Part shown: piece after piece, positions 5,742 to 59,177 of the stretch
How the letters are laid out: every line of letters begins with the position of its first letter
Numbering within the stretch: the stretch's first letter is position 1
DNA from: Octopus vulgaris
Taxonomy: Eukaryota
Assembly: GCA_951406725.2 (NCBI GenBank)
Contig: OX597826.1
Span: forward strand, 31,682,001 to 31,746,000
Reading direction: 5' to 3'
DNA: 64,000 nt
The notes under the pieces: model-generated
What the model was told of the DNA's origin: nothing
What the model saw: only the letters and a program-made list of their open reading frames with translations
The model's database searches: none
Made by a program: the position numbers and the translations under genes

Positions 5742-5774
<33 letters not shown>

Positions 5775-5992
5775 CAATATAGGGTGGCAAAAAATTTTGT
5801 AGAATTTTTTTGCCACCAGCGGCCTAGTGGGAAAAAATTAAATAGTCATAGACCATTTATAAGTTCAACATCACAATCAAGGAACGGCCATAATAGGCCA
5901 TTCACCCACTAGAAATAACAGCCAAAGCTTCAACCGCAAAATAACATTAATTCCGCAAACCAGGAGAAAATTAAAAAAACATTTACCCTGTA

Positions 5993-6099
5993 ATTTCTTA
6001 TACGATGCACCGTTTCATCTAATGTTTAATGGTAAACTAACCTGATTAAATTAAATCAAGCCAATCTTCCATAGGCCCTTAGATTCGTCAGTAAGAAAT
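5993..6099 (-). ncRNA. Type I hammerhead ribozyme
   Basis: Minus strand reads ATTTCTTA-CTGACGA-ATCTA[long hairpin]TAGAT-GAAAC-GGTGCATC-GTA^TAAGAAAT. Stems I, II and III pair and the core is canonical. Confidence 0.85.
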
Positions 6100-6828
6100 A
6101 GCCAGATCGGAACAGATATTTTCACGAGGCACTTCTGTCCCTGCCTCGGCAATATCTGACCTAAAATTTTCAAATCATCGCACTCGCGCCAAATTTATCG
6201 GCAGCAAATAAATATAAGCCGCCGATTCCATTACGGAATTAACCAGAAAATTCATAATTAATCAATATAGGGTGGCAAAAAATTTTGTAGAATTTTTTTG
6301 CCACCAGCGGCCTAGTGGGAAAAAATTAAATAGTCATAGACCATTTATAAGTTCAACATCACAATCAAGGAACGGCCATAATAGGCCATTCACCCACTAG
6401 AAATAACAGCCAAAGCTTCAACCGCAAAATAACATTAATTCCGCAAACCAGGAGAAAATTAAAAAGACATTTACCCTGTAATTGCGGAATTAATGTTATT
6501 TTGCGGTTGAAGCTTTGGCTGTTATTTCTAGTGGGTGAATGGCCTATTATGGCCGTTCCTTGATTGTGATGTTGAACTTATAAATGGTCTATGACTATTT
6601 AATTTTTTCCCACTAGGTTGCTGGTGGCAAAAAAATTCTACAAAATTTTTTGCCACCCTATATTGATTAATTATGAATTTTCTGGTTAATTCCGTAATGG
6701 AATCGGCGGCTTATATTTATTTGCTGCCGATAAATTTGGCGCGAGTGCGATGATTTGAAAATTTTAGGTCAGATATTGCCGAGGCAGGGACAGAAGTGCC
6801 TCGTGAAAATATCTGTTCCGATCTGGCT

Positions 6829-6935
6829 ATTTCTTACTGACGAATCTAAGGGCCTATGGAAGATTGGCTTGATTTAATTTAATCAGGTTAGTTTACCATT
6901 AAACAATAGATGAAACGGTGCATCGTATAAGAAAT
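6829..6935 (+). ncRNA. Type I hammerhead ribozyme
   Basis: Stem I ATTTCTTA 6829-6836 pairs TAAGAAAT 6928-6935; CTGACGA 6837-6843; stem II base ATCTA 6844-6848 pairs TAGAT 6907-6911; GAAA at 6912; stem III ACGG-TGCA-TCGT; GUA triplet 6925-6927. Confidence 0.85.
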
Positions 6936-7053
6936 TACAGGGTAAATGTTTTTTTAATTTTCTCCTGGTTTGCGGAATTAATGTTATTTTGCGGTTGAAG
7001 CTTTGGCTGTTATTTCTAGTGGGTGAATGGCCTATTATGGCCGTTCCTTGATT

Positions 7054-7105
<52 letters not shown>

Positions 7106-7108
<3 letters not shown>

Positions 7109-7496
7109 TTATATATAAAAAAGAGGTTGTGTGTCTGTCTCCTACGATTTAGATTCCTAACTACTCCCACATTTTGCGGTGCAGTATAACCAAAACCGGG
7201 TATCTTATAGTCGTGATTCATATCGAGCCCTTCTGAGTATTAACGCGCGTCTACGATGAGTCTACGATTTAAAAAAAAAATTACTATAATTTTTTCCATT
7301 TTAATGCATTTTTTCGCTATTATATAAGTAACTCTCTAAAAATGTCTACGATGAGTCAACGATTTAAAAAAATTTACCATCATTTTTTTTTCCATTTTTA
7401 ATGCATTCTTTTGCTAATTTTTGGCTATAACTCTCTGAAAATGCTTATATAGTTATTTCCCTTACAAGTCCGAGCAACGCCGGGCGATACTGCTAG
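7106..7496 (+). mobile_element. Non-autonomous Helitron
   Basis: A|TC 5' end, subterminal hairpin GTCCGAGCAACGCCGGGC (7468-7485), CTAG|T 3' end, internal direct repeat. Confidence 0.8.
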
Positions 7497-9471: not shown

Positions 9472-26243
<16,772 letters not shown>

Positions 26244-27476: not shown

Positions 27477-27595
27477 ATAATAGAATGATATCACTTTGAA
27501 TGCACCGGTTCTGGTTCGATTAATGAAGTTAAGCAACACCCAGTCTAGTGAGTACTTAGACGGGTGACCGATTGGGAAATCTAGGTGCTGTAAGC
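27477..27595 (+). pseudogene. 5S rRNA pseudogene
   Basis: CACTTTGAATGCACCGGTTCTGGTTCGAT...GAAGTTAAGCA...GTACTTAGACGGGTGACCGATTGGGAAATCTAGGTGCTGTAAGC aligns by eye with eukaryotic 5S (A box, C box, 3' end) with many substitutions. Confidence 0.8.
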
Positions 27596-27789
27596 ACCTC
27601 ACACTTTCTATAGGTTCAGGCGTGACTGTGTGGTAAGGAGCTCGTGACTGTGTGGTTAGGAGTCTCACTGCGTGGCAGCTAGAGTAAGTGACTTTTACTA
27701 TAGCCTCGGGCCGACCAAAGCCTTGTGAGTGGATTTCGTAAACGAACAATGAAAGAAGACCGTGGTATGTATATATATATATAATACAC

Positions 27790-27998
27790 ATAAAGGGTGA
27801 AATATAATTAATTTAATAAAATTAATAAATTTCACCTAGTAGTTTTTTTCGGTATGGAAATGACCATATTTGGTAAGGATTATATTAATTATAATAAAGA
27901 GTTAATTGCAACAAGTTGCTCAAAACCGCATACCGAAAATATTAGAAATATTTTCTAATATTTTCGGTATGCGGTTTTGAGCAACTTGTTGCAATTAT
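27790..27998. repeat. Fold-back element in (TA)n
   Basis: Palindrome TAATTGCAACAAGTTGCTCAAAACCGCATACCGAAAATATTAGAAA and its complement (about 27903-27997); paralogous copy at 47298-47502. Confidence 0.8.
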
Positions 27999-28019
27999 AT
28001 ATATATATATATATATATA

Positions 28020-28345
<326 letters not shown>

Positions 28346-35150: not shown

Positions 35151-35394
35151 ATAAAGGGTAAAATTAATTAATTAATTAGTAATTAATAATGCTTCCAAGT
35201 TGTGTTCAGCATGTTAAAAGGACCATTTTCGGTAAACTTAAACATTACTTTTTATAATTATGAGTATAATTATAATTAGGGTTCAGCAAAAAGAATTTGC
35301 TTTGCCACATACCGAACTTTTAGAAATAGCAGCCAAATAACTTAGCTGAACCCTAATTGTAATTATAATTATACTCATAATTATAAAAATTAAT

Positions 35395-35441
<47 letters not shown>

Positions 35442-46974: not shown

Positions 46975-47093
46975 ATAATAGAATGATATCACTTTGAATG
47001 CACCGGTTCTGGTTCGATTAATGAAGTTAAGCAACACCCATTCTAGTGAGTACTTAGACGGGTGACCGATTGGGAAATCTAGGTGCTGTAAGC
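46975..47093 (+). pseudogene. 5S rRNA pseudogene (duplicate of 27477-27595)
   Basis: Near-identical to the 27477 copy. Confidence 0.8.
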
Positions 47094-47715
47094 ACCTCAC
47101 ACTTTCTATAGGTTCAGGCGTGACTGTGTGGTAAGGAGCTCGTGACTGTGTGGTTAGGAGTCTCACTGCGTGGCAGCTTGAGTAAGTGACTTTTACTATA
47201 GCCTCGGGCCGACCAAAGCCTTGTGAGTGGATTTCGTAAACGAACAATGAAAGAAGACCGTGGTATGTATATATATATATATATATATAATACACATAGA
47301 GGGTGAAATATAATTAATTTAATAAAATTAATAAATTTCACCTAGTAGTTTTTTCGGTATGGAAATGACCATATTTGGTAAGGATTATATTAATTATAAT
47401 AAAGGGTTAATTGCAACAAGTTGCTCAAAACCACATACCGAAAATATTAGAAAATATTTCTAATATTTTCGGTATGCTGTTTTGAGCAACTTGTTGCAAT
47501 TATATATATATATGTATGTATGTATGTATGTGTGTGTGTGTGTACGTGTACATATATATATATATATACGGCAAATAAGAAAACGGAGAGGATATAAAAT
47601 CGACAGACATCAGCCAATAAGCATTCAAGTATGTCTATTTATTCTGTTTTCTTATTTGCCGTATAAATCATGCGTAAATCACTTTTTTACTCCCGCCCAT
47701 ATATAATACACACAT

Positions 47716-55532: not shown

Positions 55533-55883
55533 GCACATATATAAATACACATATACATATATCACTATGCATATATAGTGATATATAAAAAAATATAGCG
55601 GCGTACGTACACTTTGGTCTCTTATATGTAAATATATATATATATATATATATATATTTAATCAATATAGGGTGCCAAAAAAAAATTTTGTAGAATTCTT
55701 TTGCCACCAGCGGCCTAGTGGGAAAAAATTAAATAGTCATAAACCATTTTTAAGTTCAACATCACAATCAAGGAACGGCCATAATAGGCCATTCACCCAC
55801 TAGAAATAACAGCCAAAAGCTTCAACCGCAAAATAACATTAATTCCGTAAACCAGGAGAAAATTAAAAAACATTTACCCTGTA

Positions 55884-55990
55884 ATTTCTTATACGATGCA
55901 CCGTTTCGTCTACTGTTTAATGGTAAACTAACCTGATTAAATTAAATCAAGCCAATCTACCATAGTCCCTTAGATTCATCAGTAAGAAAT
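55884..55990 (-). ncRNA. Type I hammerhead ribozyme
   Basis: ATTTCTTA-CTGATGA-ATCTA...TAGAC-GAAAC-GGTGCATC-GTA^TAAGAAAT, with an A.C mismatch at the base of stem II. Confidence 0.8.
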
Positions 55991-56853
55991 AGCCAAGTCG
56001 GAACAGATATTTTTCACGAGGCATTCCCGTCCCTGCCTCGGCAATATCTGACCTAAAATTTTCAAATCGTCGCACTCGCGCCAAATTTATCGGCAGCAAA
56101 TAAATATAAGCCGCCGATTCCATTACGGAATTAACCAGAAAATTCATAATTAATCAATATAGGGTGGCAAAAAAATTTTGTAGAATTCTTTTGCCACCAG
56201 CGGCCTAGTGGGAAAAAATTAAATAGTCATAAACCATTTTTTAAGTTCAACATCACAATCAAGGAACGGCCATAATAGGCCATTCACCCATTAGAAATAA
56301 CAGCCAAAAGCTTCAACCGCAAAATAACATTAATTCCGTAAACCAGGAGAAAATTAAAAAACATTTACCCTGTAATTTCTTATACGATGCACCGTTTCGT
56401 CTACTGTTTAATGGTAAACTAACCTGATTAAATTAAATCAAGCCAATCTACCATACAATCGTATAAGAAATTACAGGGTAAATGTTTTTTAATTTTCTCC
56501 TGGTTTACGGAATTAATGTTATTTTGCGGTTGAAGCTTTTGGCTGTTATTTCTAGTGGGTGAATGGCCTATTATGGCCGTTCCTTGATTGTGATGTTGAA
56601 TTTAAAAATGGTTTATGACTATTTAATTTTTTCCCACTAGGCCGCTGGTGGCAAAAGAATTCTACAAAATTTTTTTGCCACCCTATATTGATTAATTATG
56701 AATTTTCTGGTTAATTCCGTAATGGAATCGGCGGCTTATATTTATTTGCTGCCGATAAATTTGGCGCGAGTGCGACGATTTGAAAATTTTAGGTCAGATA
56801 TTGCCGAGGCAGGGACGGAATGCCTCGTGAAAAATATCTGTTCCGACTTGGCT

Positions 56854-56958
56854 ATTTCTTAGATGAATCTAAGGGCCTATGGTAGATTGGCTTGATTTAA
56901 TTTAATCAGGTTAGTTTACCATTAAACAGTAGACGAAACGGTGCATCGTATAAGAAAT
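56854..56958 (+). ncRNA. Hammerhead copy with a core deletion, predicted inactive
   Basis: Reads ATTTCTTA-GATGA: C3 and U4 of CUGAUGA are missing; the rest is intact. Confidence 0.7.
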
Positions 56959-57342
56959 TACAGGGTAAATGTTTCTTAATTTTCTCCTGGTTTACGGAAT
57001 TAATGTTATTTTGCGGTTGAAGCTTTTGGCTGTTATTTCTAGTGGGTGAATGGCCTATTATGGCCGTTCCTTGATTGTGATGTTGAATTTAAAAATGGTT
57101 TATGACTATTTAATTTTTTCCCACTAGGCCGCTGGTGGCAAAAGAATTCTACAAAATTTTTTTTGCCACCCTATATTGATTAATTATGAATTTTCTGGTT
57201 AATTCCGTAATGGAATCGGCGGCTTATATTTATTTGCTGCCGATAAATTTGGCGCGAGTGCGATGATTTGAAAATTTTAGGTCAGATATTGCCGAGGCAG
57301 GGACAGGAATGCCTCGTGAAAAATATCTGTTCCGACTTGGCT

Positions 57343-57449
57343 ATTTCTTACTGATGAATCTAAGGGCCTATGGTAGATTGGCTTGATTTAATTTAATCAG
57401 GTTAGTTTACCATTAAACAGTAGACGAAACGGTGCATCGTATAAGAAAT
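57343..57449 (+). ncRNA. Type I hammerhead ribozyme
   Basis: ATTTCTTA 57343-57350, CTGATGA 57351-57357, GAAAC 57426-57430, GTA 57439-57441, TAAGAAAT 57442-57449. Confidence 0.8.
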
Positions 57450-57566
57450 TACAGGGTAAATGTTTTTAATTTTCTCCTGGTTTACGGAATTAATGTTATT
57501 TTGCGGTTGAAGCTTTTGGCTGTTATTTCTAGTGGGTGAATGACCTATTATGGCCGTTCCTTGATT

Positions 57567-57612
<46 letters not shown>

Positions 57613-57616
<4 letters not shown>

Positions 57617-58305
57617 AATTAAGGACTGAACACGAAAAGTGGACAGTCAACATGCTAGATATAGACGTCAAATCGCCATTCACCACAAAAGATTATGTTC
57701 TCAGATCAAACTCAACACAAAACCATAGCAATAAACAAGTGAAAAATATACGAAATAAAATAATTACCCATGTAGGAAAACTGCAGCCATCATCAGCATG
57801 GTCCGTTATAAATGTAATTTGCTGGACTAGATGCAAACACGATACCGAAATATCGCGTGCATGGATTTCAGCCTATTACATTTGAATATATCTTTCAAAT
57901 GCCTTTACTTTGCGCGTTGAAACCCGAGAAAACTAGCCTGCTGCTAATAATTAGCAGCAGTCAATTAATCGGTTAGAGAACATATTTATTTATATAAAAT
58001 TAATTAAGGGTAGAAATTGATATTTATCAATTAAGACCAGTGGTCTAGCATATTAAAAAAGAATCCGAAGATTAAAATATTTATATATACCAATTAAGGA
58101 CTGAACACGAAAAGTGGACAGTCAACATGCTAGATATAGACGTCAAATCGCCATTCACCACAAAAGATTATGTTCTCAGATCAAACTCAACACAAAACCA
58201 TAGCAATAAACAAGTGAAAAATATACGAAATAAAATAATTACCCATGTACTAAATAACAGCTGAAACTAATTTAGTACATGGGTAATTATTTTATTTCGT
58301 ATATT
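57613..58305. mobile_element. Second tandem/fold-back family (475-nt unit) with split hammerhead halves
   Basis: TACCAATTAAGGACTGAAC at 57613 and 58088; minus-strand CCATG-CTGATGA-TGGCTG at 57801-57784; plus-strand CAGCT-GAAAC-TAATTTA-GTA-CATGG at 58258-58282. Confidence 0.7.
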
Positions 58306-59177
58306 TAATTAATTAATTAGTAATTAATAATGCTACCAAGTTGTGTTCAGCATGTTAAAAGGACCATTTTCGGTAAACTTAAACATTACTTTTTATAATT
58401 ATGAGTATAATTATAATTAGGGTTCAGCAAAAAGAATTTGCTTTGCCACATACCGAACTTTTAGAAATAGCAGCCGAAGAACTTAGCTGAACCCTAATTA
58501 TAATTATAATTATACTCATAATTATAAAAATTAATGTTTATATATATATATTTATATATGCATGTATTTTTGTATGTATGTGTATATATGGATATGTATA
58601 CGTGTATGTGCATATATGCATATTTGTATATATGTATGTATGAGAGTGTGTATATGTATGTATATGTGTGTGTGAATAAGTGTATGTATGCATATGTGTG
58701 TGTATATGCACATATAGGCATATATATGTATGTGTGTATGTGTATTTGCGTATGTATATATACACCATCCTACCTGTGAGAACTGAAGAGGTGACCTCGT
58801 AACCCAGGTCAACTTTTGACAAGAACACATGAAAAGTGACCATTCCTGAATTTTCCATTTGGTTATTCTTGATAAACTCAAATCTTCTCCCCACTGTTCC
58901 CAATTACTATTAATCTTATTTAATATATTTATATTTTCGCTTGATTTAATTACTTTCTTCATTACTTTTTTCTTTTTTCTCTTCTTCTCCTTCCCCTTCT
59001 TCGCCCTCTTTCTTCTTTCATTTTGCTGTTGTTGTTATTGTTGTTGTTGTTGTTGTTTTTGTTGTTGTTGTTGTTGTTGTTGTTCTTCTTCTTCTTCTTC
59101 TTCTTCTTCTTCTTCTTCTTCTTCTTCTTCTTCTTCTTCACACATGCTACTACTGTACATGGCTGGGTTACACTACA

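Follow-up and report, generated by a model that had tools for sequence, protein, structure and literature searches.

The window analysed here is a 64,000-nucleotide stretch of the Octopus vulgaris genome (contig OX597826.1, positions 31,682,001 to 31,746,000) and contains two inverted arrays with a 488-nt period and one type I hammerhead motif per intact unit. The motif, located with a pattern-and-stem script, comprises stem I (ATTTCTTA/TAAGAAAT), CTGANGA, a long stem II, GAAAC, a short stem III and GT(A/C); an Rfam search of the window returned no hammerhead family among 118 matches (E up to 1). Units are numbered so that +1 is the first base after the predicted cut, which follows GUH. Array 1 is a 1.3-kb inverted repeat (5771-7057) with a (TA)n run on either side (5743-5772 and 7057-7117). 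Its long-tailed B arm (5771-6483, minus strand, 713 nt) runs from unit +6 past one cut site to about +230 in (TA)n, and its shorter A arm (6482-7057, plus strand, 576 nt) from +43 to +130, likewise in (TA)n; the arms meet at an inversion junction (6482-6483) with a 2-nt overlap (TT). The B arm carries a hammerhead motif at 5993-6099 (minus strand, predicted cut after 6001) and the A arm one at 6829-6935 (plus strand, predicted cut after 6927) with an 8-bp stem I, CUGACGA, a long stem II, GAAAC and a short stem III. Array 2 has a B arm of 801 nt (55655-56455, minus strand) that starts at unit -73, within stem II, and ends at B in (TA)n, with an intact motif at 55884-55990; a junction with a 2-nt filler (56456-56457); and an A arm of 1113 nt, or 2.3 units (56458-57570, plus strand), that runs from -6 to A. 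This arm has an intact motif at 57343-57449 and a copy with the cut after 56950 that is missing 2 nt on the 5' side of the core. Both arrays thus share their outer ends, with one arm ending at +130 (A) and its partner at about +232 (B), but differ at the centre, where the arms of array 1 start at +6 and +43 and those of array 2 at -73 and -6.

The arms consist of the 488-nt unit only, and hold no open reading frame for a reverse transcriptase plus GIY-YIG endonuclease. The catalytic core and stem I are 98-100% fixed across copies and variable at N7 and at H17 (A or C), although this conservation discriminates weakly, only 6% of unit positions varying as much as N7 and H17. The triplet before the predicted cut (unit position 488, window 6927) is GUA in some subfamilies and GUC in others (58% A), and both count as cleavable hammerhead triplets. 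The tail between A and B contains a 12-bp hairpin (unit 184-216, window 6622-6654) that gathers stops of short B arms and several junctions and is a candidate protein-binding or initiation signal.

Genomic copies and sampling

The A end followed by TATATA has 429 exact matches in the 2.8-Gb genome, with arms mostly 91-100% like the window unit, and the family appears from these copies to be dispersed and recently mobile. Copies were sampled by the outer A end, independently of junction position. The discovery set was the first 100 of the 429 matches (99 arrays analysed), and the replication set comprised 73 further copies on contigs C4-C30, or 72 after removal of one duplicate. Left out were L122 (replaced by L263), L218 (a tandem duplicate of L217), the upstream of two L040 matches, and the window's own two arrays. 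L217 and L218 (G000:C9:101318254 and 101320469) represent a single insertion that has been duplicated in tandem at a spacing of 2.2 kb and has the same junction in both copies. Counts of B arms and of furthest reach omit seven arrays whose second arm does not end at B, and A-arm counts omit two arrays with an internal direct joint. Search patterns that covered the cut or recurred within the unit were excluded from the statistics, as was a first DNA search (40 of 1162 candidates scored) that was biased to long arms of one phase.

A long inverted second arm is present in 141 of the 171 arrays and a very short one in 6; another 22 lack a second arm, and 2 have an internal direct joint. The sequence-only reading of the window had the arms pointing outward from the centre in ribozyme sense, and this holds for the 147 of 171 copies that are head to head. 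The long second arm ends at B in 134 cases and at A in 2, the A end of the first arm being the sampling criterion. B flanks are TA repeats in nearly all rows listed; the TA flank at A was imposed by the search pattern. An arm is longer than one unit in 82 of 171 arrays. Copies with an A arm only (L039, L043, L045 and 19 more) mostly start straight at the microsatellite and are likely events in which the B cDNA failed.

Junction position relative to the predicted cut

Because arms shorten from fixed ends, a uniform null was dropped and stops were counted per nucleotide at risk; the two arms of an array are non-independent data. Plotted along the unit in 171 copies, as the sequence-only reading had proposed, junctions are spread over the entire unit length, most lying anywhere along it, and 113 of the 140 copies that reach the cut (to +30) read through it. 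A pile-up downstream of the cut is superimposed on this spread: the furthest-reaching arm (one value per array, n=162) starts at +1 to +30 in 27 arrays against 6.0 expected, with 19 at +1 to +15 and 8 at +16 to +30, against 2 at -15 to -1. The excess over expectation, about 21 of 140, corresponds to ~15%, or about one insertion in seven. It sits 5-25 nt downstream of the cut rather than at it, and only one of the 27 ends is at exactly +1. Within 6 nt of the cut there is no enrichment of arm starts (12 vs 8.7 expected). An arm starts at +1 to +30 in 38 of 171 copies, and within 6 nt in only 11, so that the earlier proposal that centres adjoin the cut as a rule does not hold.

When both sets are pooled, the interval +1 to +30 holds the starts of 33 A arms (of 169) and 22 B arms (of 134). 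The best 30-nt window of all 488 begins at -4 for A arms, +3 for B arms and +1 for both together (scan p=0.0002 and 0.0008 per arm). The excess is limited to the first pass: A arms show 4.5-fold on the first pass and 0.98-fold on later ones, and the furthest-reach count for later passes is 6 vs 4.9 expected. In 17 short copies both arms start at +1 to +40, with 15 different start pairs and the A arm nearer the cut in 14. Runs of U were rejected as a cause of stops, giving only 1.10-fold elsewhere (p=0.34), as was AT content, which stops do not track.

In the discovery set, the rate at +1 to +30 was 4.4 times that at -30 to -1 for A arms (20 of 97; p=0.002) and 3.7 times for B arms (12 of 78; p=0.024). 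Four contrasts fixed beforehand for the replication set gave one clear pass, two borderline results and one failure. For A arms, +1 to +30 vs -30 to -1 failed (10 vs 7, 1.29-fold, p=0.39), and the contrast with the rest of the unit was 1.9-fold (p=0.051); for B arms the ratios were 3.0-fold (p=0.066) and 3.3-fold (p=0.002), respectively. Under an adjusted rule chosen after looking, in which the duplicate was dropped and the junction placed at the overlap midpoint, the A-arm contrasts became 12 vs 4 (p=0.057) and 2.4-fold vs the rest (p=0.008). The junction signal is accordingly modest and partly replicated. Assembled contigs of public DNA runs also contain many left-to-right joints, so inversions of this kind are not confined to the present assembly. 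The best 15 of 163 joints by depth, a non-random choice that does not include the window's own junction, comprised 14 inversions, 8 of which have an arm at +1 to +30, 7 of these at +1 to +10.

The window's own examples had suggested a tighter relation. The left arm of array 1, read in ribozyme sense, does start 5 nt past the cut (6483, unit +6), with its partner at +43. The right arm of array 2 begins 6 nt before the cut at 56458 as described, its partner lying at -73 in stem II beyond the 2-nt filler. Centres in unrelated families had been placed on GAAAC..GTA at 28200-28211 and 58263-58277. These are true type I hammerhead 3' strands, relatives carrying CTGATGA and a matching stem I, but the arm starts (-14/-22 and -26/-8) lie upstream of the cut, where no family shows an excess. 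Both arms cross the cut in three of these four examples, which therefore cannot derive from RNA ending there; given the lack of enrichment within 6 nt, those three are background.

Other hammerhead families and alternative sources of the pile-up

One alternative is that the folded ribozyme, through stem I, stalls reverse transcription on uncut or circular RNA, later laps being spared because the RNA is already paired with cDNA. Such stalling predicts the observed restriction of the excess to the first pass; stem I spans +1 to +8 and most stops lie at +4 to +19, and another hairpin (184-216) gathers stops too. However, seven of the furthest-reach ends lie at +1 to +7, within stem I itself, the core and stem III (-15 to -1) are at background (2 stops), and the 14-bp stem II shows no excess. 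Predicted pairing of +1 to +10 (0.34-0.59) is also not above the unit mean of 0.60. We therefore consider stalling at stem I unlikely, while granting it some weight.

The other families in the window bear on a second alternative. The family 3 insertion (505-nt unit; 57615-58306, starts -8 and -26, hammerhead 3' strand 58263-58277) has a left arm that ends at the family's A site and a right arm that stops at +29. Its inner unit lacks the GAAAC..GT strand (about 32 nt, at 57760-57820), so that this ribozyme copy is broken. Among 61 of 412 family 3 matches examined (A at +158; 19 repeat loci dropped), 39 stops lie downstream and 2 upstream of the cut, the best step is at +7 (range -9 to +11), and the comparison directly across the cut is 5 vs 0 (p=0.044). 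The family 3 peak is at +31 to +60 rather than at the cut, which corresponds to an arm length of 98-128 nt, against 100-130 nt in family 1. This agreement raised the possibility that stops pile up at a fixed 100-130 nt upstream of the A start, through a protein footprint, processivity or a protected RNA fragment, the cut being coincidental in family 1. In line with this, the RNA required by the anole protein begins about 90-100 nt upstream of the start site (shortest active 5' end +20, start +111-118; PMC11167929).

The fixed-distance explanation was tested on family 5 (583-nt unit, A at +193; 48 of 476 matches, 12 repeat loci dropped), which has no peak at the length-matched +61 to +90 (1.03-fold). 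Instead, four A arms stop at +5 to +10 (length about 190), three with partners at +8 to +16; 0.89 such stops are expected in the +1 to +10 window, which was chosen afterwards (p=0.012). The broader contrast of +1 to +60 vs upstream, fixed beforehand, is 2.1-fold and not significant (p=0.097). Family 3 stops, moreover, continue to length 152 and do not drop until the cut is reached (5 in 726 nt, then 2 in 3632). A fixed distance is thus an improbable source of the pile-up, to be ranked close to stalling at stem I; a hybrid, in which cleavage opens the RNA and its end is then trimmed back to the footprint, is possible.

Family 2 gives no such step. Its two-armed insertion in the window (28020-28243) has a B arm to 28197 (minus strand) and an A arm from 28198 (plus strand), with starts at -22 and -14, the hammerhead 3' strand at 28200-28211, and ends at +38 (A) and about +152 (B). 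With only 38 nt between the A end and the cut, the centre of any short copy falls close to the cut. The family is not tandem, and in 30 of 87 B-end matches sampled (A at +38) there was no step at the cut (4 vs 3). Its long arms include a 140-codon reverse-transcriptase-like fragment (L148:649-1071, minus strand) whose atlas matches are eukaryotic protein clusters, one with RVT_1 in 19% of members; no Pfam family matched this fragment. Family 2 may be a deleted autonomous element rather than a tandem retrozyme. Two other families, then, lean the way of family 1, and a third does not. Over three independent sets combined, 20 of 29 stops lie downstream vs 15.4 expected by raw counts (p=0.063), and 22 of 28 vs 14.9 under the adjusted rule (p=0.005). 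Two fixed 3' ends, with a tail on one arm, occur in families 2, 3 and 5 as well.

A third alternative, that a promoter near +1 makes the 5' end a capped transcript start and not a ribozyme product, would also produce first-pass-only stops, and Penelope pLTRs are described in passages of PMC3846280 as containing promoter motifs. However, the same offset to the cut recurs in three families of different sequence, and a start at +1 would need the upstream tandem sequence to serve as promoter each time. We regard it as very improbable.

Many more type I hammerhead repeat families are present in the genome, with units of 451, 531-533 and 583 nt among them (loci L084:3350-3933, L103, L190, L135, L215, L236, L306, L337 and L361). 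Their distance from cut to the nearer TA-flanked end ranges from 34 to 193 nt, a natural series that could separate cut from distance. In the window, short palindromes at 10500-10582, 35239-35399 and 58380-58540 are related to the family 5 group, and more short inverted repeats stand beside microsatellites at 27880-28022, 47408-47502 and 19089-19304; a genome search with the palindrome family at 27880-28022 gave only the window's copy. SINE-like elements at 27478-27596 and 46976-47092 have 5S rRNA-like heads (above the Rfam cut-off) followed by one common short repeat, and sit in a region that resembles an old duplication spanning about 20 kb (approximately 29-36 kb and 50-59 kb).

Joining of the two arms

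The arms of one array agree at 1535 of 1550 diagnostic sites (94 arrays), whereas shuffled pairs agree at 54%; for units of the same arm the figure is 2681 of 2701 sites. Variants private to a single array are present in both arms in 30 cases (21 of 134 arrays) and in one arm only in 118. Shared haplotypes and private variants fit an origin of both arms from one RNA molecule, although the haplotype identity could also arise from a single active master locus or from subsequent conversion between arms.

At the junctions, an overlap of at least 2 nt occurs in 63 of 134 arrays (a raw count, not set against chance), 20 junctions are blunt, and 24 have filler of at least 5 nt; of 15 fillers of at least 9 nt, 12 match nearby sequence. 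Microhomology together with templated inserts is the signature of polymerase-theta end-joining, and we infer joining of that type from the overlaps and templated fillers. Junctions are symmetric within 12 nt in 38 of 134 arrays, against 8.3 expected (maximum 21 in 10,000 permutations), and asymmetric in 96. Several symmetric junctions fall on short palindromes or hairpins, stem III included; pairing between two cDNA ends of equal polarity is possible only at palindromic or hairpin sites.

Symmetry of this kind is also what snap-back would leave, in which a single cDNA primes on itself to make the inversion and the shorter arm is then cut at A. Snap-back predicts identical arms, and the B arm equals the A arm plus about 102 nt in 29 of the 38 symmetric junctions, several of them on short palindromes. 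It had been offered in the sequence-only reading as the alternative to two cDNAs. In its simple form it is excluded for the 40 of 134 arrays, array 2 included, in which neither arm is contained in the other. The 96 asymmetric junctions also count against it, as does the extension of both target strands in vitro (PMC11167929). Snap-back may make part of the symmetric class; as the general source of the inversions we give it little credence. The joining of two cDNAs primed from opposite target strands, the other route that had been suggested, is the likely one. Chance or an assembly artefact is a still more remote explanation of the excess: one replication contrast failed and the window's own junctions are unconfirmed in reads, but the scan p is ≤0.0008 per arm with all windows allowed for, and fixed A and B ends in (TA)n, inversion joints in public-run contigs and templated fillers all argue against it.

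A proposed mechanism and its relation to known elements

Taken together, the arrays are probably back-to-back insertions of a hammerhead retrozyme with two fixed ends, likely made by a Penelope-type enzyme from two cDNAs of one RNA and likely closed by microhomology-mediated end-joining, the predicted cut likely setting the junction only in the ~15% copied from a cleaved linear monomer. Nicks would be made in both strands of a (TA)n target, and each nick would prime reverse transcription on one RNA, one at unit +130 (A) and the other at about +232 (B). On a circular template, both cDNAs would cross the ligated site, for as many as several laps, and end at scattered positions; with a linear monomer as template, each would run off the 5' end that the ribozyme had made. 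Having the same polarity, the two free 3' ends would then anneal where short stretches are complementary or palindromic. About 4-25 nt would be lost, filler copied from nearby sequence would sometimes be added, and each end would act as primer for a second strand templated by the other. Multi-unit arms with one haplotype point to circles: likely ~85% of templates let the enzyme past the cut, often several times, as expected of circles, and ~15% (21 excess of 140) end at it, as expected of self-cleaved linear monomers.

The broader reading, which falls a little short of an even chance in our judgement, is that the genome records both retrozyme RNA forms, linear RNA giving short two-armed copies walled by the cut and circles giving multi-lap arrays, each made by a Penelope dimer as two end-joined cDNAs of one RNA. 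The idea that the ribozyme ends reverse transcription survives for the cut-bounded class (27 vs 6.0 at +1 to +30), and not for the 113 of 140 copies that read through. A ribozyme-defined insertion mechanism, as first envisaged, is not supported, in view of this read-through, the 82 of 171 arrays with arms over one unit, the later passes (6 vs 4.9), and outer ends that are set by two Penelope-type start sites.

L1 twin priming likewise turns two target-primed cDNAs into an inversion, with microhomology and templated inserts at the junctions; L1 arms cover different parts of the RNA, whereas the arms described here overlap and each has a fixed start. Neither retrozymes, nor their link to Penelope-like elements, nor the layout of an inverted copy with a tail is new. 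Metazoan non-LTR retrozymes, as described in passages of Cervera and de la Pena 2020 (PMC7229834), PMC7761336 and Li, Clavereau and Pollet 2026 (bioRxiv 10.64898/2026.07.22.740005), share with the present family a non-coding tandem unit with one type I hammerhead. The same passages propose linear and circular monomers, multimeric cDNA from circles and Penelope-like elements as the likely mobiliser. The 488-nt unit lies outside the range of about 150-450 nt in those descriptions. Passages on mussel retrozyme RNA report coexisting linear and circular monomers, the linear form at under 5% to 25% (PMC7229834), and word searches of PMC7229834 and bioRxiv 10.64898/2026.07.22.740005 gave no treatment of inverted insertions.

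Endonuclease-bearing Penelope-like elements resemble these arrays, according to passages of Craig et al. 2021 (PMC8557442), in their inverted 5'-truncated copy, tail on one arm and, as far as the flanks listed go, (TA)n targets. Head-to-head junctions that are often palindromic are a further likeness in passages of Arkhipova et al. 2013 (PMC3846280), where they are ascribed to self-priming, as proposed for rotifer Penelope. Frangieh et al. 2024 (PMC11167929) placed two reverse transcription starts downstream of the hammerhead, as here, and both strands were extended in their in vitro reconstitution; the anole element did not need cleavage in vitro, and none of its RNA-seq reads begin or end at the cut. 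Unlike the Penelope-like elements in the portions of these sources covered, the octopus family has no open reading frame, a tail of about 100 nt rather than 30-40, and arms of several units. The closest parallel for a cut that sets the template 5' end is the 5' HDV-like ribozyme of R2, in passages of Eickbush, Burke and Eickbush 2013 (PMC3774820), and where the R2 cut is at the element end, junctions vary, which was ascribed to chance microhomology. R2, as described there, joins cDNA to target DNA, whereas here two cDNAs join and a minority of templates end at the cut; an R2-like pattern, with most complete insertions ending at the cut, is not what the 113 of 140 read-through copies show. The portions covered of the literature (including PMC8557442, PMC3846280, PMC4209133, PMC7229834, PMC7761336 and the 2026 preprint, supplements aside) contain nothing that links the junctions of retrozymes or Penelope elements to where the hammerhead cuts. 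What hammerheads do in vivo in Penelope-like elements is 'still a mystery' according to a passage of PMC7761336, and the formation of their inverted ends is listed as an open question in one of PMC8557442.

If the two-template reading holds, insertion does not require cleavage, yet cleavage leaves a wall that can be counted; circles serve as the principal template, and the inversion joins one cDNA to another. Young non-coding families supply hundreds of independent junctions each, and each step of the mechanism predicts outcomes for the existing in vitro Penelope assay. The junction histogram would, if this is true, be germline evidence of Penelope-type hammerhead cutting in vivo and would measure the linear-to-circular template ratio of each family.
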